Positions 6,616 through 62,797 of a stretch of 64,000 nucleotides of DNA are shown piece after piece. This stretch comes from Escherichia phage vB_EcoM_LNA2: sequence record MZ311865.1; one strand, written 5' to 3'. The position numbers were made by a program, and so were the translations under genes. Each line of letters starts with the position of its first letter. Within the stretch, counting starts at the first letter, position 1. A model generated the notes under the pieces. It searched no databases and was not told the origin of the DNA. It saw only the letters and a program-made list of their open reading frames with translations.

Positions 6616-6673
6616 TTTATTTCTCCAATTTGGTTGTTTTGTTTTGATAGGTCTATAATATCATGTTTGAAGC
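6606..6673 (-). repeat. Direct repeat copy 2 (motA promoter/leader/start duplicated)
   Basis: About 65 bp near-identical to 6286-6352 with small indels. Confidence 0.8.
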
Positions 6674-6683
6674 ACATGTAAAC
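6655..6683 (-). promoter_or_regulatory. Early promoter (GTTTAC-17-TATTAT), duplicate of motA promoter
   Basis: Drives ORF 6400..6615. Confidence 0.6.
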
Positions 6684-6708
6684 TGTTTTGTGAGAAAAAT
6701 GCACAAAA

Positions 6709-6724
6709 GGGAGCCGAAGCTCCC
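6709..6724 (-). terminator. Intrinsic terminator after gene 52
   Basis: GGGAGC-UUCG-GCUCCC followed by U-rich tract on the transcript. Confidence 0.6.
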
Positions 6725-6800
6725 TAATCATGTTTGTCCAACCAATACAGCCAAATCACTAGTGCAGCTATTGCACCGAGAAATCCTAAGGCTAGGGCAC

Positions 6801-8126
6801 TCAAAGTGCCTCCAAGTCTTTAGTGTACTCTGTCACAACATCGGTAGACTTCCAATACTCATTTTCTTCTTTCTTAGCTTTAGCTTCTTCGGCTAGTTTA
6901 CGTGCTTCATCGGAAGTGATATGGAAGATGTTAAGACCTACCAGTTTATCGACATGTTCTTTATACATTTCTATTTGTGCTAGCTCTTCAGTCAAAGCTT
7001 TACGAGTCTTGCCCTGAATCACAATTTCACCGTTGATAACTTTTTTGATGAAGTGTGCCTTAGCAAAAGCCAGTTTAAATGCTTTTTCAGATTCAAGGAT
7101 TTTGTTGTCAATACGTTTCTGAACGTAAGTCTTACGGACTTCAACAAAATCTTTGATTAAGTCCACTACGTTATCGTAGACAGCTAATTTACCCTTTTCA
7201 TTAATCACTGTGATGTTTTGTGAACGACGTTCGATGAGACTAAAATCTTTCATGATTTTTTCATGACGTAGCTCTTCATCATCAGGAAGCGAGTACTCTT
7301 TACGGAACTTCACCTTAAACCCAAAGCCGTGTTCACCACAATCATCTTCCCATGAGATTAGACCTTTGTCTTCCAACGGGTCAAGAACCTTACTCACATA
7401 CGTTTCACGGTCGAATTTATATGGGATTTCAGTTATCTGCATTTGAGTGCGAGATGTGAACTTATACGTTCCGTGAATCTCATAACGCCCATCAACTTCA
7501 TGTACTTCACCACGGAATTCCGGGAATTCAACTTTTGGCTTAGTGACATTTTTACCTTGAAGAGCTTGTAATACAGCCTTTTTTACCGATTTAAAACTAT
7601 GAGGCAGAATATTTGTTGCGTAACCGGTTGCAATACCAGAGACGCCATTCAAAAGAACTGTCGGAATAATAGGAAGATAGAATTTTGGTGGAATGTGTTC
7701 TTTATCTTCATGAGCTGGAGCATATTCAGTATCTTTATATACGTTATAGAAATTTTTACTTACACGAGCAAAAATATAACGAGATGCTGCAGCTTTTTGG
7801 ACTGTTCTAGAACCAAAGTTGCCTTGGCCATCTAACAGTGGATAGTTGTTGTTCCATGTGTTAGCCATCAATGCACCTGCATCTTGTGCAGAAGATTCAC
7901 CATGGTGATAACCTAAATCTGCAACACCGCCTGCAATTGACGCAAGTTTATGAAATTTTTCTTTATTACCACGAGCCAAATCTAACGCACGATGGACCAC
8001 AAAACGTTGAACCGGCTTAAATCCATCAATCATGTTTGGGATTGCACGGTTTTCAACGGTGTACATCGCATATGCTAAGGCTTCGTTATCAATAATACTT
8101 TTTAGATTACGAGAATTCAATTGCAT
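6801..8126 (-). CDS. 52: DNA topoisomerase II medium subunit gp52
   Basis: 441 aa, MQLNSRNLKSIIDNEALAYAMYTVENRAIPNMIDGFKPVQRF... GyrA-like; T4 synteny. Confidence 0.9.
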   Translation of the reverse strand: MQLNSRNLKSIIDNEALAYAMYTVENRAIPNMIDGFKPVQRFVVHRALDLARGNKEKFHKLASIAGGVADLGYHHGESSAQDAGALMANTWNNNYPLLDGQGNFGSRTVQKAAASRYIFARVSKNFYNVYKDTEYAPAHEDKEHIPPKFYLPIIPTVLLNGVSGIATGYATNILPHSFKSVKKAVLQALQGKNVTKPKVEFPEFRGEVHEVDGRYEIHGTYKFTSRTQMQITEIPYKFDRETYVSKVLDPLEDKGLISWEDDCGEHGFGFKVKFRKEYSLPDDEELRHEKIMKDFSLIERRSQNITVINEKGKLAVYDNVVDLIKDFVEVRKTYVQKRIDNKILESEKAFKLAFAKAHFIKKVINGEIVIQGKTRKALTEELAQIEMYKEHVDKLVGLNIFHITSDEARKLAEEAKAKKEENEYWKSTDVVTEYTKDLEAL

Positions 8127-8130
8127 ATTT

Positions 8131-8271
8131 TCACCATATTAATGAACGAATATCCATTATAACATCTGAAATGAAAAGCACTACTTGGATTAGTCCAAAC
8201 ATCACACCGTAGTACAGAACCGTAAGCAACAACAAGAGCCCGAAGGCTCCTGCTAAAATTTTCTTAATCAT
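8131..8271 (-). CDS. Small hydrophobic protein, 46 aa (not in ORF track)
   Basis: Hand translation MIKKILAGAFGLLLLLTVLYYGVMFGLIQVVLFISDVIMDIRSLIW; start overlaps upstream stop (TAATG); position of T4 ac/52.1-type small genes. Confidence 0.4.
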   Translation of the reverse strand: MIKKILAGAFGLLLLLTVLYYGVMFGLIQVVLFISDVIMDIRSLIW

Positions 8272-13780: not shown

Positions 13781-13981
13781 TCACAAGTTACGTTTAAAAA
13801 TTTCTGCCACTTCGAGAAGTTCTTCTTTAGTAGCTGTATCGGTTTGTATTTTATATCGAATTTCTTTAAAGCGTTCTTTAAAGGACTCTGCTGACTCGAT
13901 ATCAAAAAATCTTTGGATAAGCCGGAATTCCCGGAGCACTGCTTTATCAAAAAGTTCCAAGTCCACGTTATATGTTCTCAT
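13781..13981 (-). CDS. Hypothetical protein, 66 aa (rIIA.1 position)
   Basis: ORF track; immediately upstream of rIIA. Confidence 0.5.
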   Translation of the reverse strand: MRTYNVDLELFDKAVLREFRLIQRFFDIESAESFKERFKEIRYKIQTDTATKEELLEVAEIFKRNL

Positions 13982-14005: not shown

Positions 14006-14057
14006 GGGCACTATTACTAAAGACCATATAATCTATCATCTTATGTGTAATAGTGCC
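14006..14057 (-). repeat. Imperfect 11-bp inverted repeat with 30-nt loop between GT gene and rIIA.1
   Basis: GGCACTATTAC ... GTAATAGTGCC; loop contains TATAAT-like sequence. Confidence 0.5.
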
Positions 14058-17034: not shown

Positions 17035-17085
17035 GTTGTCTCCTCGTTATGAAGGTATTCTATCATCCGAAATCTAAAGCAAAAA

Positions 17086-18391: not shown

Positions 18392-18421
18392 ATAGTATCA
18401 TAGACCATAGTTGTTGTACAT
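18392..18421 (-). promoter_or_regulatory. Early-like promoter (ATGTAC-18-TACTAT)
   Basis: Upstream of ORF 18136..18363; -10 within GGTCTAT/ATAGACC palindrome. Confidence 0.45.
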
Positions 18422-18945
18422 CATTTTAGCAAAATAAAATCAACTTGTTCTGCCAATGAACGTCTGAACATTAATTGACAACTTCCGAGGATGAAATCAG
18501 GTGCTTCATAGACCGCGATGTAGTATCCTTTAGCTTTCAAGAGTTCAACATCCACCTGGTCATCAAACCATGCATAAACCGCGTCAACACTTTCAAATCC
18601 AAAATAGAACTCTTGAGCCCAATCTTCGCTCAATTCAAATGTGTGCTCAATTCTATAGTATCTTAAGATATTTTGTTCAAGGAGTTTGTCTTCATTTACT
18701 GTAGGACGATTAGGGACATTATAGTTGTCGCCATGATGGTAGAAGTTACCTGAGAGTATTCCATGCTTATCAAGGAACTCCCATGTTTCTTCAGAGTTGT
18801 CGGTGCCCGACCAACCGTATGGCGAACGAGGTTCTTTATTCCAAGAGGTTTCCCAAATTCTGACGGCTTTACCGTCTTCAATAGCAATTCCTGGTAATGA
18901 TTCACGTTGAGTACAAAAACTACGTTCTACGCGGTAAACTAACAT
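18421..18945 (-). CDS. Hypothetical protein, 174 aa
   Basis: ORF track; GAGGAG SD inside a 12-bp inverted repeat. Confidence 0.5.
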   Translation of the reverse strand: MLVYRVERSFCTQRESLPGIAIEDGKAVRIWETSWNKEPRSPYGWSGTDNSEETWEFLDKHGILSGNFYHHGDNYNVPNRPTVNEDKLLEQNILRYYRIEHTFELSEDWAQEFYFGFESVDAVYAWFDDQVDVELLKAKGYYIAVYEAPDFILGSCQLMFRRSLAEQVDFILLK

Positions 18946-18950
18946 ATTAT

Positions 18951-18993
18951 TCTCCTCTGGTTGATATGGTTATAATATCAAAACCAGAGGAGA
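18951..18993 (-). repeat. 12-bp perfect inverted repeat enclosing promoter -10 (PeSL-like stem-loop)
   Basis: TCTCCTCTGGTT ... AACCAGAGGAGA; stem contains SD of ORF 18421..18945. Confidence 0.7.
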
Positions 18994-19000
18994 AGTAAAC
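18972..19000 (-). promoter_or_regulatory. Early promoter (GTTTAC-17-TATTAT) inside stem-loop
   Basis: Upstream of ORF 18421..18945; -10 in loop of a 12-bp inverted repeat. Confidence 0.55.
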
Positions 19001-19004
19001 AACT

Positions 19005-19424
19005 TTATGCAAAAGATGCTGGACAATATTTTTTGATTTGGAACTCAGGAACTACCATGAACTGTCCAGCAAAAACAATGTTATAAAGCTTGACTCCATC
19101 TTCAACCCATTGGTCACTGATGAACCCAGCGACTTGATTCGTTGTCCACGGTGTTCCATCTGTCGCAGAGGCAATGGTGAACTTGTGGTCTTTTACAACT
19201 AAAACCGATCTGCACAGTTTCCATTTGAACGCTTTTTCTTCCGGTTCAATGAATTGGCTTTTAACGTAACCAATGTTACCATCGGCGTCACGAACTTTAA
19301 CTTCGTTACGTCCAAAAACAGGATCACTCACATAAAGAACTTCAACCAACTTCCCGGCAACTTTAGAGCGAGAAGCATCCGATACGTGTACATAATCACC
19401 AATAGAGAGATTTGCAATATTCAT
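19005..19424 (-). CDS. Paralog A of a three-gene family (KOW-like N-term + conserved C-terminal domain)
   Basis: 139 aa; shares IGDYVHVSDASRSKVAGKLVEV and GFISDQWVEDGVKLYNIVF.G.F.VVPE with the next ORF. Confidence 0.55.
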   Translation of the reverse strand: MNIANLSIGDYVHVSDASRSKVAGKLVEVLYVSDPVFGRNEVKVRDADGNIGYVKSQFIEPEEKAFKWKLCRSVLVVKDHKFTIASATDGTPWTTNQVAGFISDQWVEDGVKLYNIVFAGQFMVVPEFQIKKYCPASFA

Positions 19425-19433
19425 AATAATTCC

Positions 19434-19931
19434 TTAAGCTTTACGAGGAGACACATAGCGAGTGATTTCAGATTCTTCAACAACTCGGAAGTCACCTAAG
19501 AATACAATATTGTATAGCTTTTTACCATCTTCAACCCATTGGTCGCTGATGAAGCCGCACATAGTATCAGTTTTGCTTGGATAACCGTATTCGTCGATGT
19601 AATCAAATTCTTTATCGGTTATAAATTCAACGCCTTTGCAAAGGGCCCATTTGAACTGTGTAGTAGGCTCAACGATATCGCTTGAAGCAAAGTGTGCAGG
19701 TGCAACTTCTTCGCTTGAAGCAAATTGGACTCGTATATGTTTTTCCAGGAATTTAGGACTTACGTAAGCATACTGGGCATCTTGTCCGCCAAAACTGGGG
19801 ATGATTCGAACTTTAACTTCTTTAACACGTCCCATGCCGTTAGTACGAAGCCCTGCTACTTCAACCAGACGACCTGCAGCTTTAGAACGAGAAGCAGGAG
19901 ATACACGAAGGATTTCACCAATAGTAATCAT
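19434..19931 (-). CDS. Paralog B of the same family
   Basis: ORF track 19434..19994; ATG 19931 (MITIGEILRVSPASRSKAAGRLVEV...) with SD; own promoter. Confidence 0.55.
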   Translation of the reverse strand: MITIGEILRVSPASRSKAAGRLVEVAGLRTNGMGRVKEVKVRIIPSFGGQDAQYAYVSPKFLEKHIRVQFASSEEVAPAHFASSDIVEPTTQFKWALCKGVEFITDKEFDYIDEYGYPSKTDTMCGFISDQWVEDGKKLYNIVFLGDFRVVEESEITRYVSPRKA

Positions 19932-19961
19932 ATTTTTTCTCTCTTTGTTTAAGTTGAATTC

Positions 19962-19991
19962 ATTATACTCCATCCATCCTTGGATGTAAAA
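19962..19991 (-). promoter_or_regulatory. Early promoter cassette (TTTTAC-18-TATAAT)
   Basis: TATACTCCA.CCATCCTTGG.TGTAAA family; upstream of paralog B. Confidence 0.5.
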
Positions 19992-19993
19992 CA

Positions 19994-20488
19994 TTAATTA
20001 AGAATATTAACTACTGCACTACGTGGAACAACACTAAAATCACCAGCATGAACAACGTTAATAAGTTCAACACCATCTTCAATCCACTGGTCAGTTACCC
20101 ATCCACTCACTGGACCTGCGAACGGACGTCGAATTGAAACGGCTTTACACAACAAATCAGTAGGCTCAATAGGCTTAATCAGAGTACCGTACATACAAGC
20201 GATGTCCATATCAAAGTGGAGACCATCTTTAACAGGTGCTTCTTCAATCAAGAGTTCAAAGTCGGTGCTCGGAAGGGCAGTAGTAGAAATTGTACCGTAT
20301 GAATTTTTAATTTCTAAGAATAACCAAGGGCCTTCAACTTGTTTGATGAAGTTAACAATAGTGAAACTATTACCTTGAGTGGCACCTAAAATTTCACAAA
20401 ACTTTTCATAAGCTCGCACTGAAGCACCGTACCAATTGATTTGTTTTTCGTCTTTCAGGATGTAAGTAGCCGTAGTATTGATATTCAT
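19994..20488 (-). CDS. Paralog C (shares C-terminal domain only)
   Basis: 164 aa; C-terminal GWVTDQWIEDGVELINVVHAGDFSVVP; own promoter. Confidence 0.55.
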   Translation of the reverse strand: MNINTTATYILKDEKQINWYGASVRAYEKFCEILGATQGNSFTIVNFIKQVEGPWLFLEIKNSYGTISTTALPSTDFELLIEEAPVKDGLHFDMDIACMYGTLIKPIEPTDLLCKAVSIRRPFAGPVSGWVTDQWIEDGVELINVVHAGDFSVVPRSAVVNILN

Positions 20489-20519: not shown

Positions 20520-20549
20520 ATTATACTCCAACCATCCTTGGTTGTAAAC
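20520..20549 (-). promoter_or_regulatory. Early promoter cassette (GTTTAC-18-TATAAT)
   Basis: Same family; upstream of paralog C. Confidence 0.6.
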
Positions 20550-20554
20550 TGCTT

Positions 20555-21232
20555 TTATCGCTGTTTTACACTTAACGGGTCAGGATTCTCAGGGACATCT
20601 TCAAGGCCAAGCGCATAACGCTGAGCATATTTTAACATCAAAATATCTTTAGCACAATCATGAATACTATCATGGGCAACGAATCCTTTTAGCGTACCCA
20701 TCGGTAATGGACACATACTTAATCCTCGTGTCAACGAGTAAGCTTCGATTGCTGTACGAATATCACGTTGAGCCCAGAATTTAACCGGTTCTAATTTATC
20801 AGTATCAATATCTGGTTCAAGAACACCTTCATCACGATAGAGGTCACGAATCAAATCGACCAAGATTGGGAAGTCAAAGCTCATACCACGGCACCACATC
20901 TGTGATTTCCATTGGTCAACTTTATTAGCTCGACAATAATCTAAAAAGATTTTAATGCCTTCAAGCGTAGTGACATCGTCTTCAGACGGAGCCAAGTTTT
21001 TACGCGCTTCAGCAGATTGTTCTTTCCACCATTTCATAGTGGATTTAGCGAAAACTCGCTTCCCTTTCTGAGAAGCTAAATTAAATTTAATTCGCTTACC
21101 TCGTTGAACAAGGTCTTCAAATGATTCAACAACTTCTGGGTCGGAATTATATGCAATAACCGCAAGGTCAATAACAGCCGCTTTTGATGTATTGCCGAAT
21201 GTTTCAAAATCTATAATAACATCAGTGCTCAT
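20555..21232 (-). CDS. dexA: Exonuclease A (DnaQ-like 3'-5' exonuclease)
   Basis: 225 aa; IDFETFG exo motif; T4 synteny next to dda. Confidence 0.85.
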   Translation of the reverse strand: MSTDVIIDFETFGNTSKAAVIDLAVIAYNSDPEVVESFEDLVQRGKRIKFNLASQKGKRVFAKSTMKWWKEQSAEARKNLAPSEDDVTTLEGIKIFLDYCRANKVDQWKSQMWCRGMSFDFPILVDLIRDLYRDEGVLEPDIDTDKLEPVKFWAQRDIRTAIEAYSLTRGLSMCPLPMGTLKGFVAHDSIHDCAKDILMLKYAQRYALGLEDVPENPDPLSVKQR

Positions 21233-21241
21233 AATTTTCTC

Positions 21242-22555
21242 TCAAATAAAATGGACGTCAAACCGGCCACGAGTTGTGCCGACATACAATAACTGTTTAG
21301 CTAATTCTGAATCGGCATAATGGATACACGGTGTATAAACAAAGGCCGTGTCAACAGACATACCCTGAGCCTTATGGAAGGTTGATACTGGTAGTGCCTT
21401 CACCTTAGTGAACATACGTTTAGCATCCCAGAATTCGCTCCATGGAGCTTTACCACCTTTATTCCAGAATTTGTATGTTTCTGCTGTCTTAGCCAAAAAC
21501 AAATTGAATTTATAAAGCTCTTCTTCAGAAGAAATAACCTTTATATCTTCACGGATGTATTCTTCATCATCCCCATATGTTTCTACTGTAAGATTCCAGT
21601 ATCGTATCATATATTCGCCTGAAACACCACGTGCTTTAACGAATGTAGACGTTTCTACAGCATCTCGAATACGAACGAATTGCCCATTATTGAAAAGCAT
21701 TTCGGTCATATTTTTACCGTCTAGCTTATATGTCTTAGTAAATGGCTCTTGTAGAACAATGACTTCGTCTTTAATAAATGGTTTTTCTGTTTCAAGAAGT
21801 TTTCGGCGAATAATTGAATTTAACTTGTCCACCGACTTATTTGTGAATGCCATCATTCGATTTTCGAAAAGGTCTTCAGGAGTTTTAACGACGTTAAAAT
21901 AGTTCATCATATACGATTTAAGGTCTGTATATCCATGAACACCGTGTCCATCAACTACTTTATCGTAAATCCATTTGCCATTACGAATATCAGTCGCAAC
22001 ATCAATAATTGGTGCATTACTACGTTTAACTTCTGTAAGGTTGCATTGCACGAAGTCTTTGTGAGTGAAGAAAGGACTTAGATACGCAGTTGATTCGCCT
22101 GGGTCTACCGGTCGAATTTGACATCGGTCGCCGATTCCAATTACTGTGCACCATTTAGGGATACTAGCTAACATTATTTTAAACAGAGAACGGTCGCACA
22201 TTGACGCTTCATCAAATAACAGTACACGACACAAGGCTAAGTCGGGAACCTTTTTCTGTTCAAACAATACGTTTTCTTCGTATGTAGTTGGGTTGATTTT
22301 AAGAATGCTATGAATAGTCGATGCTTCTTGACCTGCAAGTTTGCTTAGAACCTTTTTAGCAGCATGTGTAGGGGCTGCTAAAATAATACCTGATTCTCCA
22401 GAAGAAATAAGGGCTTCAACGATGAATCTAGTAAGGGTTGTTTTACCTGTACCAGCAGGTCCATTAATAGTTACATGATGTTTCTTTTCTTTAATAGCTT
22501 CCATAACAACGTTGAAGGCGTTTTTCTGGCCTTCAGTCAAATCATCAAATGTCAT
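21242..22555 (-). CDS. dda: Dda DNA helicase (SF1)
   Basis: 437 aa; MTFDDLTEGQKNAF...GPAGTGKTT Walker A; close to recalled T4 Dda. Confidence 0.9.
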   Translation of the reverse strand: MTFDDLTEGQKNAFNVVMEAIKEKKHHVTINGPAGTGKTTLTRFIVEALISSGESGIILAAPTHAAKKVLSKLAGQEASTIHSILKINPTTYEENVLFEQKKVPDLALCRVLLFDEASMCDRSLFKIMLASIPKWCTVIGIGDRCQIRPVDPGESTAYLSPFFTHKDFVQCNLTEVKRSNAPIIDVATDIRNGKWIYDKVVDGHGVHGYTDLKSYMMNYFNVVKTPEDLFENRMMAFTNKSVDKLNSIIRRKLLETEKPFIKDEVIVLQEPFTKTYKLDGKNMTEMLFNNGQFVRIRDAVETSTFVKARGVSGEYMIRYWNLTVETYGDDEEYIREDIKVISSEEELYKFNLFLAKTAETYKFWNKGGKAPWSEFWDAKRMFTKVKALPVSTFHKAQGMSVDTAFVYTPCIHYADSELAKQLLYVGTTRGRFDVHFI

Positions 22556-24401: not shown

Positions 24402-24431
24402 ATAGTATCATCATCGGAAGAGTTTGTACAC
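24402..24431 (-). promoter_or_regulatory. Early-like promoter (GTGTAC-18-TACTAT) upstream of modA
   Basis: Minus strand. Confidence 0.45.
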
Positions 24432-25012
24432 TAAAAATTCAACATTTTCAAATGAATGATTTTGTATAATCGAGATAAAGGGTCATATTCTAAGTCTTCA
24501 ATTTCCACAATCTCAAATCTAGAGATACCTGAGACCATGTACTCTTGTTCAGATTCAATCATATCTAGGATGTCAACACGCGTTTCTTCCATAACATGCT
24601 TAGGGTTCTTTCCGGCGAGTACAATGTTAACCATGTTTTGGTAGTAATCAAAAATGAATGGAGCATTCCTGAGACTAAGAATAGTGTACGTCTGATATTC
24701 CCATCTCCCAGAGAATTGACGAGCTGTACTGAAATCAGTTGTGAATGATGTTACTCGTCCAGGAGACCAATAGCATCCAACAGAAAGAAGTGAAAGACGT
24801 TCTACTTCTTCTGGAGTTACACCACGGTAGAGTTCTACTGGTACTGTAGAAGTCATATGCTTACGAACAAGATGGTCTAATTCATAGTGGAAATCCGGGT
24901 CTTCCTTAGAATCGGTGCAAGCCCAGAGAATGTTTTGTTCTTGGCGGGTGAATTTGCTATCAATCAGATTTGTTAGGTATTCACGTTCTTGAAGTTCAGA
25001 TTGACATGTCAT
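24431..25012 (-). CDS. modB: ADP-ribosyltransferase ModB-like
   Basis: 193 aa; LYRG ... SFT ... EQEYM; paralog of modA. Confidence 0.7.
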   Translation of the reverse strand: MTCQSELQEREYLTNLIDSKFTRQEQNILWACTDSKEDPDFHYELDHLVRKHMTSTVPVELYRGVTPEEVERLSLLSVGCYWSPGRVTSFTTDFSTARQFSGRWEYQTYTILSLRNAPFIFDYYQNMVNIVLAGKNPKHVMEETRVDILDMIESEQEYMVSGISRFEIVEIEDLEYDPLSRLYKIIHLKMLNF

Positions 25013-25039
25013 GATAGACCTCCATTTAAAGATAAGCCT

Positions 25040-25068
25040 ATCATAACACGAGAGGAGGGAATGTAAAC
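25040..25068 (-). promoter_or_regulatory. Early promoter (GTTTAC-17-TATGAT) upstream of modB
   Basis: Minus strand. Confidence 0.5.
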
Positions 25069-26053: not shown

Positions 26054-26250
26054 TCGCAGCTCCCTGAGCTTGAACCACAATCAGAATAACTTGACCCAGA
26101 ATCACCAGGCCAAGACGATACGTATGAATGATTATAATCGGAAGAGCTTGAAGCATTAACCTGTTTTGTTTTTGGACGAACAACTTCTTCCATCATTCCG
26201 TCACCGATATATTCCCAACTTTTTTCGTGTGTATCAGGAATAGGCATCAT
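26050..26250 (-). CDS. Hypothetical Ser-rich protein, ~66 aa
   Basis: ORF track 26050..26373 overlaps the next ORF; shortened to ATG 26250; ATGA-coupled to downstream gene. Confidence 0.3.
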   Translation of the reverse strand: MMPIPDTHEKSWEYIGDGMMEEVVRPKTKQVNASSSSDYNHSYVSSWPGDSGSSYSDCGSSSGSCE

Positions 26251-26491: not shown

Positions 26492-26569
26492 ATTGTTCTC
26501 CTCTTAAGTAAGTAAGAATATCTTAACACAGTTTTTAGTGGTTGTAAACTGTAGAAACAAAAAAAAAAA

Positions 26570-26587
26570 GGAATCCCGAAGGATTCC
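26570..26587 (-). terminator. Intrinsic terminator after soc
   Basis: GGAAUCC-UUCG-GGAUUCC plus U11. Confidence 0.7.
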
Positions 26588-26595
26588 TTGAATTA

Positions 26596-31191: not shown

Positions 31192-31380
31192 TTATCGAAA
31201 ATCTGCTTCGAAAACTTTCTCGTCATTAACAAATGCTTTAACTAATGCGTTGTTCACTTCAGCAAGTTGTACCGTAACCCACTCGATTTCTTCGCGATCA
31301 CCTGATAACATGATATCTTTAGTGAACATCTCACCGCTTTTAAACCAACCGATAAAAGTAACTTTAGTTAATTTGCTCAT
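31192..31380 (-). CDS. Dmd-position small protein, ~62 aa
   Basis: ORF track 31192..31401; ATG 31380 with GAGGAA SD; ATGA-coupled. Confidence 0.4.
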   Translation of the reverse strand: MSKLTKVTFIGWFKSGEMFTKDIMLSGDREEIEWVTVQLAEVNNALVKAFVNDEKVFEADFR

Positions 31381-31694
31381 ATTTCCTCGCAAAATGCCCA
31401 TTCAGCGTGATAAACTGTAGCACCTTTAGTATCATTCATTTGAACTACGTCTACCGGAGAAATTACTCGATAGAGACGTGGTTCACCTCCATAAGAGCGT
31501 GCTGCTCGTCCTGCATAAATCTTTGCTAAACCGATATCTTCAGTAAAGAATACACGATCCAAGTTTTTCTTACGTCCAGTTTCAGACAGAACTCCTGTTT
31601 CCTCAGGAGGACAAAGCATGTTTTCGATGTTAGCTGAACTACTTGAACCGTGATAAAAAATCTTAAATTCTGCTTTACAATCGATGGTTTTCAT
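31377..31694 (-). CDS. Hypothetical protein, 105 aa
   Basis: ORF track; own early promoter. Confidence 0.5.
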   Translation of the reverse strand: MKTIDCKAEFKIFYHGSSSSANIENMLCPPEETGVLSETGRKKNLDRVFFTEDIGLAKIYAGRAARSYGGEPRLYRVISPVDVVQMNDTKGATVYHAEWAFCEEI

Positions 31695-31720
31695 TTTGTT
31701 CTCCAGTAGTTGATAGGTCT

Positions 31721-31749
31721 ATAATAACACAACTACTGGAGAAGTAAAC
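31721..31749 (-). promoter_or_regulatory. Early promoter (GTTTAC-17-TATTAT)
   Basis: Upstream of ORF 31377..31694; TTGATAGGTCTATAATA motif. Confidence 0.55.
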
Positions 31750-32124
31750 TTAAAAACGTAATTTAGATATATCTGCGTTGATTTCGGTTTGGTTTGCGTC
31801 GTATGCAATTAAACGAACAGCTTTAGATGGATCATTCAATGCATAGAAATGATGGAACATTGCTCGAACGATATCACCATTTACGAGTTCTACCTGGATA
31901 GGAGAACCTTTTTCGAGTTGGAAATGTTCATAGGCTTTGATGGTTCGCAGATAATCAAGTTTTTGATTTCCGGCTCCAACAATTTGTACGATACGTTTGC
32001 CCATGTTTTCCATACGAGATACAATAGTTTTAGGAGCAAGAATAACGTAGGTTGCCAGCGGAGAAACTACTTCAACAGTGGTGTTTTCGGTGATTGCAGT
32101 AAAAATTGCTTGAGACATATTCAT
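31750..32124 (-). CDS. Hypothetical protein, 124 aa
   Basis: ORF track; own early promoter. Confidence 0.5.
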   Translation of the reverse strand: MNMSQAIFTAITENTTVEVVSPLATYVILAPKTIVSRMENMGKRIVQIVGAGNQKLDYLRTIKAYEHFQLEKGSPIQVELVNGDIVRAMFHHFYALNDPSKAVRLIAYDANQTEINADISKLRF

Positions 32125-32153
32125 AATGTTTTCCTCTTGGTTTGTGTAAGTAC

Positions 32154-32183
32154 ATCATATCATGCCTAGAGGAAGATGTAAAC
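32154..32183 (-). promoter_or_regulatory. Early promoter (GTTTAC-18-TATGAT)
   Basis: Upstream of ORF 31750..32124; adjacent to gene 41 terminator. Confidence 0.5.
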
Positions 32184-53982: not shown

Positions 53983-54016
53983 ACGATAGGAAGATAATAA
54001 CATGACTTCCTATCGT
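53983..54016 (-). repeat. 11-bp inverted repeat hairpin between small early genes
   Basis: ACGATAGGAAG ... CTTCCTATCGT with 12-nt AT-rich loop. Confidence 0.6.
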
Positions 54017-54665: not shown

Positions 54666-54914
54666 TCAGAGGTTGATTGATACAACGCGTTTGATAAAAT
54701 TCACTTCACTTACTGAAAGGTCTTTAAGACCGATTGATTCTAAACGCTGAGTAAGCGTCAACATCGGGATATAATCCCAATGAGTTTTAGTTGCTTGATA
54801 AGTACGAACTCCATTAGCAATTTCAACGTTCAAATCGGAAATGGTAATGAATATCGGACGCTCGTCATTAACTTTAAGGGTTAGAACAACTTTCTTTGAA
54901 TCTAAACTAATCAT
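54666..54914 (-). CDS. Hypothetical protein, 82 aa
   Basis: ORF track. Confidence 0.45.
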   Translation of the reverse strand: MISLDSKKVVLTLKVNDERPIFITISDLNVEIANGVRTYQATKTHWDYIPMLTLTQRLESIGLKDLSVSEVNFIKRVVSINL

Positions 54915-55093
54915 GACTTAATTTCCTTCGCAATTGAACAGAAGATACCACGGTCACAAAGCATTTCACCAATTTCTGGATATTTGATTGAACGGTACCA
55001 AACATCCAGGCTTGAAACTCTGGTTATCTGTATGGCATTACCATTGACAGAATAGTACTGGTCAACCTTAATTTCTTTATCTTCAATTGTCAT
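54911..55093 (-). CDS. Hypothetical protein, ~60 aa
   Basis: ORF track 54911..55255; ATG 55093 with GAGGA SD; upstream part is leader with promoter and terminator. Confidence 0.4.
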   Translation of the reverse strand: MTIEDKEIKVDQYYSVNGNAIQITRVSSLDVWYRSIKYPEIGEMLCDRGIFCSIAKEIKS

Positions 55094-55242
55094 TTTATTT
55101 TCCTCTATAGTAGATGGTTTAATCTTAACACATCTATTGAGGATGTAAACTGTTTTATGAAAATATTTTTTGATTTGAGAGGGGCACAAGGAGATAGTGA
55201 AGTGAAGATTCCAATGGATTATATTAGAAATGAGATAAAGAA

Positions 55243-62767: not shown

Positions 62768-62797
62768 ATTATACTCCAACCATCCCTGGTTGTACAT
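62768..62797 (-). promoter_or_regulatory. Early promoter cassette (ATGTAC-18-TATAAT)
   Basis: Same family; upstream of ORF 61782..62741. Confidence 0.5.

Follow-up and report, generated by a model that had tools for sequence, protein, structure and literature searches.

The window analyzed here is a 64,000-nt stretch of Escherichia phage vB_EcoM_LNA2 (MZ311865.1), and all positions refer to it unless another genome is named. It represents a T4-like myovirus that belongs to the RB69 group (genus Mosigvirus). Over 4.5 kb around the element described below, it is 94-98.6% identical to Escherichia phages UGJNEcP1, vB_EcoM_G53, moskry and others. Every gene near the element is encoded by the minus strand and is transcribed toward lower coordinates. 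In the order of transcription, the genes are dda (21242-22555), dexA (20555-21232), three MotB-like paralogues (19005-20488), a motB.2-like gene (18421-18945), cef, goF and the topoisomerase gene 39. The MotB-like ORF just upstream of the element (19005-19424) matches the Pfam motB family (PF17613) and has its stop codon at 19007-19005. The ORF downstream of the element (phrog_1106, ATG at 18945-18943) encodes a putative protein of 174 aa, which is a homologue of T4 motB.2 with 33% identity. It contains no Pfam domain and its function is unassigned. Its N-terminus aligns with those of the homologues in T4, Dhakavirus IME341 and Kanagawavirus CIP9.

The motB.2-like gene does not keep the same neighbors in different genera. 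In this phage it comes after the three MotB-like paralogues (18421-20488 with the gene itself) and abuts cef. In T4 (locus 6653-8161), IME341 and CIP9 it comes directly after dexA. The promoter-hairpin cassette in front of the gene stays attached to it despite this change of gene order.

Between the two ORFs we found a perfect inverted repeat of 13 bp, 100% complementary, at 18950-18962 (TTCTCCTCTGGTT) and 18982-18994 (AACCAGAGGAGAA), with 19 nt between the arms. The preliminary description had reported a perfect 12-bp stem at 18951-18993. The perfect pairing and the 19-nt spacing were confirmed, but the length was not, because the pairing extends one position further on each side. An RNA folding energy calculation, which had been suggested as a check, gave -24.9 kcal/mol for the minus-strand RNA, compared with -10.6 ± 2.6 kcal/mol for shuffled sequences (z = -5.5), and none of 200 dinucleotide shuffles folded as well. 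An inner 6-bp helix, UGAUAU/AUAUCA (18980-18975/18967-18962), cuts the loop to 7 nt. The window has two perfect inverted repeats of at least 13 bp with a loop of 3-40 nt, against an expectation of 0.025 per dinucleotide-shuffled window (200 shuffles). Both of them have the same architecture. The hairpin is thus a real structure and not a chance product. Rfam gave no family at gathering thresholds over the whole window, and on the hairpin itself only chance matches to microRNA and snoRNA families below threshold. We also noticed an 11-bp perfect inverted repeat with a 29-nt loop at 14007-14057. It lies upstream of a small ORF (13781-13981), between a gene 60/39-like ORF and rIIA, and has no convincing early-promoter match.

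Read along the gene strand, the element is GTTTAC-TTCTCCTCTGGTT-TTGATATTATAACCATATC-AACCAGAGGAGAA-TAAT-ATG. An AT-rich stretch (19001-19030) that includes the stop codon of the MotB-like ORF lies upstream of the -35 hexamer. The -35 (GTTTAC or TTTACT, 18994-19000), located by a promoter scan, is immediately 5′ of the stem. The 5′ arm, UUCUCCUCUGGUU (18982-18994), resembles an anti-Shine-Dalgarno (anti-SD) sequence and fills the promoter spacer; it should be present only in RNA started upstream. An extended -10, TG-A-TATTAT (18972-18980; TG at 18980-18979 and TATTAT at 18977-18972), lies in the loop and partly in the inner helix, in agreement with the earlier placement of a -10 element in the 19-nt loop, and it belongs to the minus strand. 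From the promoter geometry, transcription is predicted to start at about A18965 (18964-18966), ~7 nt past the -10 and inside a TATCAA motif. The same motif trails the -10 in most early-promoter-like elements of the window. The 3′ arm, AACCAGAGGAGAA (18950-18962), starts 3 nt after this predicted start. As had been noticed from the sequence, it contains the SD GAGGAG (18957-18952) of ORF 18421-18945, whose ATG at 18945 comes 4 nt past the stem.

The scan read the promoter as TTTACT, a 16-nt spacer and TATTAT, with the TG present; the spacer is 17 nt if the -35 is taken as GTTTAC. The early-promoter consensus of T4/PST phages is TTTACW-N17-TAYWAT (Comeau et al. 2014, PMC4122927). We counted ~24 early-promoter-like elements with leaders of ~20 nt on the minus strand of the window, most of them with hairpins in or across the promoter. 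The annotation of Yersinia phage fPS-2 lists a predicted early promoter at the orthologous site. The earlier claim that the repeat encloses a promoter was therefore strengthened, by the consensus match with TGn, the similar elements, the fPS-2 annotation and the predicted +1 lying between the two arms. For T4, map position makes the early promoter P8.1 a lead as the promoter of motB.2. A plus-strand promoter built on the visible TATAAT was also considered and rejected. It has no usable -35 before it, all of the genes here are on the minus strand, and this TATAAT is a mirror image of the AT-rich core of the minus strand.

Two more early promoters lie upstream on the minus strand, at 19990 and 20548. 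A scan for terminator-like sites on the minus strand between 19000 and 20600 found none. Therefore, transcripts from both promoters should read into the element. A MotA-box search for upstream middle promoters gave candidates at 26157 and 17083 only (minus strand; TGCTT..A, 11-13 nt, TAnnnT). The candidate at 17083 precedes gene 39, where T4 has the known middle promoter P39.

We compared the predicted cost of opening the segment from SD to AUG in the two kinds of transcript. For the element studied here (18999), it was 13.2 kcal/mol in read-through RNA and 2.6 kcal/mol in RNA starting at the predicted +1. For two further elements of the window, described below, the corresponding values were 12.3 and 3.0 kcal/mol (31748) and 16.6 and 3.2 kcal/mol (25067). 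The mean predicted probability that the SD of the 18999 element is unpaired was 0.009 in read-through RNA. Comparatively, promoters with no hairpin, or with a hairpin that stops short of the SD, had opening-energy differences of ~3 kcal/mol or less. In the work of de Smit and van Duin on SD-occluding helices, a difference of ~10 kcal/mol reportedly corresponds to a drop in initiation of orders of magnitude.

Orthologous leaders were collected by tblastn against phage genomes, and the wider class of stems by a DNA-pattern scan of IMG/VR. A search of IMG/VR for the locus by protein returned only three near-identical loci. The SD-occluding hairpin was kept at the motB.2 orthologue leaders of four genera although it was built from different bases; the folds ranged from -19.5 to -24.6 kcal/mol, with the SD paired. 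In Dhakavirus (IME341), the stem is TTCTCCTCATG/CATGAGGAGAA (-19.5 kcal/mol), and its bases are CATG/CATG where Mosigvirus has TCTGGTT/AACCAGA. In Tequatrovirus (T4, AV122 and fPS-2), the stem is UCCUCGGU-AGUUGUGGU/ACCAUAGCU-ACUGAGGA (-23.7 kcal/mol). The T4 motB.2 stem has 17 pairs, three of them G.U, and its -10, TACTAT, is in the loop. Since a G.U pair would be lost in DNA or if the opposite strand were transcribed, the T4 stem points to RNA of the sense strand. In Kanagawavirus (CIP9), the -10 TATGAT is in the 5′ arm and GGAGG with the AUG in the 3′ arm (-21.8 kcal/mol). In the close relative G53, one C.A mismatch interrupts the stem, but the predicted fold still reaches -19.8 kcal/mol. 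As judged from these leaders, the layout is conserved across at least four genera, T4 itself included.

The IMG/VR scan used the pattern GTTTACWTCTCC-N30-37-GGAGAW, which fixes only the outer five pairs. It gave 94 distinct matches, 64 of which resembled promoters in having a correctly spaced -10 and, 2-9 nt past the SD, an ATG. Of these 64, 36 had at least five further Watson-Crick pairs, with 14 different pairs of 5-mers among them, whereas the 30 non-promoter matches had three extra pairs at most. In the loop-trimmed alignment, 82.8% of cells were paired (67.4 ± 1.4% after shuffling), and double changes were found in 113 cells (54 ± 5.7 in shuffles, with 0 of 500 reaching the observed value). 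The covariation score was 0.349, compared with 0.116 for shuffled alignments and 0.05-0.09 for slid-partner controls. In this class, pairing starts precisely at the SD core and continues inward, where the stems covary. A census of G.U against A.C pairs, which would separate sense RNA from antisense RNA or DNA, came to 2 against 1, too few informative internal mismatches to separate them, so that only the three G.U pairs of the T4 orthologue bear on this point. An unbiased set of 46 early-promoter-like elements was also taken from the window, from T4 (1-50 kb) and from moskry (60-85 kb). In this set, 28% of the elements formed a duplex of -12 kcal/mol or stronger between their own spacer and leader, compared with 7.8% of cross pairs (P = 0.017).

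The layout recurs in the window. A second copy at 31693-31749 (minus strand) has GTTTAC, a 14-bp perfect stem (31743-31730/31712-31699) and TGn-TATTAT in the loop. The 3′ arm contains GGAG and is followed by ATG 31694 of ORF 31377-31694 (phrog_2110). The center of its stem (31699-31743) is AGTAG/CTACT, where the main element has TCTGG/CCAGA. Upstream of a ModB-like ADP-ribosyltransferase gene (24431-25012), a 19-pair hairpin on the minus strand (25005-25050) has its -10, TATGAT, in the 5′ arm and GGAGG with ATG 25012 in the loop and 3′ arm. T4 modB has an equivalent. By sequence, this hairpin follows the same logic in another geometry, in both LNA2 and T4. Weaker pairing between spacer and SD was predicted at two more sites on the minus strand. 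At 55101-55143, before ORF 54911-55093, the pairing is imperfect (CCUC..UAGAUG/CAUCUA..GAGG) and opening costs 6.8 against 1.3 kcal/mol. At 32131-32174, the spacer TTCCTCT pairs with AGAGGAA at the SD of ORF 31750-32124 (6.1 against 2.6 kcal/mol). More SD-occluding early-promoter hairpins were seen in moskry (60-85 kb; locus positions ~11214, 14759 and 7584), where they precede denV (endonuclease V), moskry_134 (which adjoins or equals regB) and moskry_124.

Other promoter hairpins of the window, placed around or before the -10 or in the spacer, leave the SD free (54016-53983, 18406-18387, 9762, 9250, 8989, 20544-20529 and 19986-19971). The one at 53983-54016 is an 11-bp perfect stem around the TGn-TATTAT of a TATACA-N17 promoter, and it stops before the SD (GAGGAA, ATG 53962). 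It is shaped like the main element without occluding the SD, which suggests that promoter hairpins have a role beyond translation. Since equally good hairpins leave the SD free, SD occlusion cannot be the sole reason for such hairpins. Some general role on read-through RNA must exist, for example attenuation, a 3′ barrier or shielding of AU-rich promoter sequence from RNases. The hairpins at 20529-20544 and 19971-19986, at the promoters of two tandem MotB-like paralogues, are confined to the spacer. They read CAACCA-AGGA-TGGTTG and CATCCA-AGGA-TGGATG, respectively, and differ by a compensatory change from A:T to T:A. The same spacer motif with an AGGA loop appears again at promoters near 62796 and 61776, at the right end of the window.

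These hairpins bear on the first alternative, in which the element is a generic PeSL (promoter-early stem-loop). Many such cassettes occur in the variable early regions of T4-like phages. AT-rich sequence comes first in them, then an early promoter with a stem-loop inside or across it, and last the SD and start codon of the following ORF (Arbiol et al. 2010, PMC2839356; Comeau et al. 2014, PMC4122927). The stem-loop would act as RNA on transcripts from upstream, either by attenuation or termination or as a 3′ barrier that stabilizes the MotB-like cistron after processing, and its overlap with the SD would follow from the tight 60-nt space, in which the arms have nowhere to go but the spacer and the leader. 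Placed in the spacer or spanning the -35 and -10, stem-loops of this kind lower downstream lacZ expression to the same extent as rrnB T1 (PMC2839356, PMC4122927). Many promoter hairpins in the window and in T4 (e.g. that of dmd) miss the SD, and the complementarity of elements between their own spacer and leader is general and goes beyond pairing with the SD. However, the stem studied here is followed by AAUAAUAUG and not by a U tract, and the terminator scan is blank at this position. The covarying stems from IMG/VR also start at the SD core. A helix of -24 kcal/mol over the SD would in any case block the 30S subunit, which makes a translational effect hard to avoid. As a full account of the element, the generic role therefore seems possible but rather doubtful to us, and it would not exclude SD occlusion, because the two are not mutually exclusive.

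In the second alternative, the repeat works as DNA, either as a PeSL recombination module (for cassette shuffling or the formation of mini-circles) or as a cruciform site. Modular shuffling has been proposed for PeSLs (PMC2839356, PMC4122927). The motB.2-like gene is found by cef here and by dexA in T4, Dhakavirus and Kanagawavirus with the element carried along, and near-identical elements precede different genes in IMG/VR contigs. But recombination requires homology between elements and not complementarity within one, and the stems vary between elements yet stay complementary. The three G.U pairs of the T4 orthologue would be mismatches in DNA, and a 19-nt loop is unfavorable for cruciform extrusion. 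We consider this reading improbable. Least probable is a dyad-symmetric operator at which a phage or host DNA-binding protein represses the early promoter. It could draw on the perfect dyad symmetry around the -10 and on the neighboring genes for MotB-like DNA-binding proteins, and we rejected it because the half-site spacing varies from 30 to 37 nt and the arms vary (14 inner 5-mers) between orthologous and paralogous elements while staying complementary, which is the signature of base pairing and not of a sequence recognized by a protein. The recombination and operator readings both fit less well because complementarity, and not sequence, is conserved.

The reading we prefer, with a probability of roughly 0.55, is that of a composite early-region cassette, in which a strong early promoter of the sigma-70 type is interleaved with an SD-hiding RNA hairpin and the two act as a switch. 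RNA started at the element's own promoter (~18965) would have a 20-nt leader with the 3′ arm only, and its SD would be free for ribosomes. RNA from 19990, 20548 or further upstream would contain both arms and should fold at about -24 kcal/mol once the 3′ arm emerges. The folded read-through RNA would not bind the 30S subunit and would be translationally silent. Translation of the motB.2-like gene would then depend entirely on its own immediate-early promoter, and the cumulative read-through from early and middle promoters upstream would not contribute. In read-through RNA, the GGAG would also be hidden from the RNase RegB. The short transcript would be open, translated and later inactivated by RegB, which would give a brief pulse of early expression. 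The same hairpin probably serves, in addition, as a 3′-end structural barrier for the upstream cistron and as a recombination module of the PeSL type.

The preliminary description had raised a transcript-specific translational switch as a possibility, in which read-through transcripts hide the SD and promoter-initiated ones do not. This proposal was borne out in part. The opening energies, the compensatory change across genera, the covariation and the T4 precedent speak for it. The preliminary description had missed that the element belongs to the known PeSL class, with its proposed attenuator and recombination roles, and that sister hairpins of the window leave the SD free. The switch reading is plausible and well supported by sequence analysis alone. 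Some points count against it, the mismatch in G53 among them. Ribosomes terminating 11 nt upstream of the stem might open its outer pairs. If cleavage of nascent RNA by RegB, as considered by Durand et al., is general, ribosomes might likewise enter before the hairpin forms. The pairing of the SD could also be a by-product of fitting a hairpin into an intergenic space of 60 nt.

T4-type early regions contain chains of very strong promoters with few terminators, so that many overlapping transcripts carry each gene. It is only partly understood what sets the dosage and timing of single early genes. If the switch reading is true, it supplies a simple rule in cis, that only its own promoter feeds a gene's own ribosome-binding site. 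It would explain how toxic early functions are restricted to a brief pulse, and it would tie together PeSL cassettes, hairpins that sequester ribosome-binding sites (RBSs) and RegB, which have been described separately in T4. The element would also be a compact, portable part for synthetic biology, with promoter, insulator and RBS in ~60 nt. For annotators it carries a warning, since RNA-seq coverage of such genes would not predict protein output. It offers a sharp and easily tested hypothesis on how individual early genes are insulated from read-through. A wider proposal, which we put forward tentatively and at odds of only about one in three, is that ~10-25% of early promoters in T-even-type phages (Tequatrovirus, Mosigvirus, Dhakavirus and Kanagawavirus) form an unrecognized class. 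In this class, the spacer would have evolved into an anti-SD that silences the next gene except on its own transcript. Combined with RegB cutting at the exposed GGAG, such silencing would give a self-limiting immediate-early pulse for potentially toxic host-takeover genes (modB, motB.2 and ORFs in the denV neighborhood), with translation uncoupled from the read-through of tandem promoters.

Several known systems resemble the element. An intrinsic, Rho-independent terminator likewise forms a stable hairpin between genes, where the upstream cistron ends, but here AAUAAUAUG follows the stem in place of a U tract and the outer loop is long. We rejected this identity, as the tail AAUAAUAUGUUAG has no U tract and a consensus scan found no terminator at this site. 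Elsewhere in the window, a G+C-rich hairpin (GGAATCC-CGAA-GGATTCC, ~26560-26590) with a run of A on one side resembles a bidirectional terminator between two early transcription units.

RegB together with S1 follows the rule of a single-stranded GGAG plus seven A-rich nucleotides without C, 11 nt in total (Durand et al. 2006, PMC1702504). The sequence GGAG-AAUAAUA at 18955-18945 fits this rule and is predicted to be single-stranded only in promoter-initiated RNA, which makes it a candidate site; it differs from the known sites in that a stem would protect it in read-through RNA. A RegB homologue is annotated in Mosigvirus moskry, and regB lies outside the present window. In T4, RegB cuts just two GGAU sites in vivo, of which the motB.2 site is one, and the GGAG of modB is also cut in vivo, although modB RNA is structured and resistant in vitro (PMC1702504). 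Durand et al. suggested that RegB cuts modB RNA while it is nascent and still unfolded (PMC1702504). Transcripts starting inside the hairpin would also explain the cutting of motB.2 and modB in vivo. RegB requires single-stranded RNA and yet cuts these two messages; thus, the observation fits an unstructured promoter-proximal transcript.

The T4 genes e, soc, 49 and I-TevI provide the closest precedent for hiding an RBS. Their SD and/or AUG is buried in long transcripts, and an internal promoter gives short RNAs that can be translated; for gene e, the effect of the hairpin is ~100-fold (PMC3014915). The element shares with them an SD predicted to be paired in RNA from upstream and a promoter inside the structure, so that the proximal RNA has no 5′ arm. 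The difference is in the promoter, which is of the late gp55 type there (TATAAATA) and of the early sigma-70 type here. No TATAAATA motif was found on either strand of 18940-19010. The predicted timing is opposite. The e-type switch of T4 delays translation to late infection, whereas here it would be limited to the gene's own immediate-early transcript.

With PeSLs the likeness is general. The element is intergenic, lies in a variable early region, is repeated within each genome and travels with small non-essential ORFs. It has the PeSL layout (stop codon at 19007-19005, ATCTTTTGCATAAAGTT upstream of the -35, GAGGAG and ATG 18945), a stem-loop in the promoter (the 13-bp perfect stem with the 6-bp inner helix) and the expected repetition (~24 elements on the minus strand, with similar ones in moskry and T4). 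Five positions have been published for the stem-loop. It may lie upstream of the -35 or overlap it, fall within the spacer, overlap the -10, or directly precede the +1. In none of these five does the SD form the 3′ arm while the spacer supplies the 5′ arm, although an older description is possible. The stem-loops of T4/PST phages have been drawn just upstream of the promoter. The stems here are rich in AU and GA, not in polyG/polyC. The PeSL authors proposed attenuation of read-through and the shuffling of cassettes (PMC2839356, PMC4122927), that is, a terminator or attenuator and a recombination site, and not occlusion of translation. On all of its sequence-level features, the element is a PeSL-type early promoter cassette with a stem predicted to occlude the SD. 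What is new here is the combination of two known T4 themes, the PeSL cassette and the RBS-hiding hairpin.
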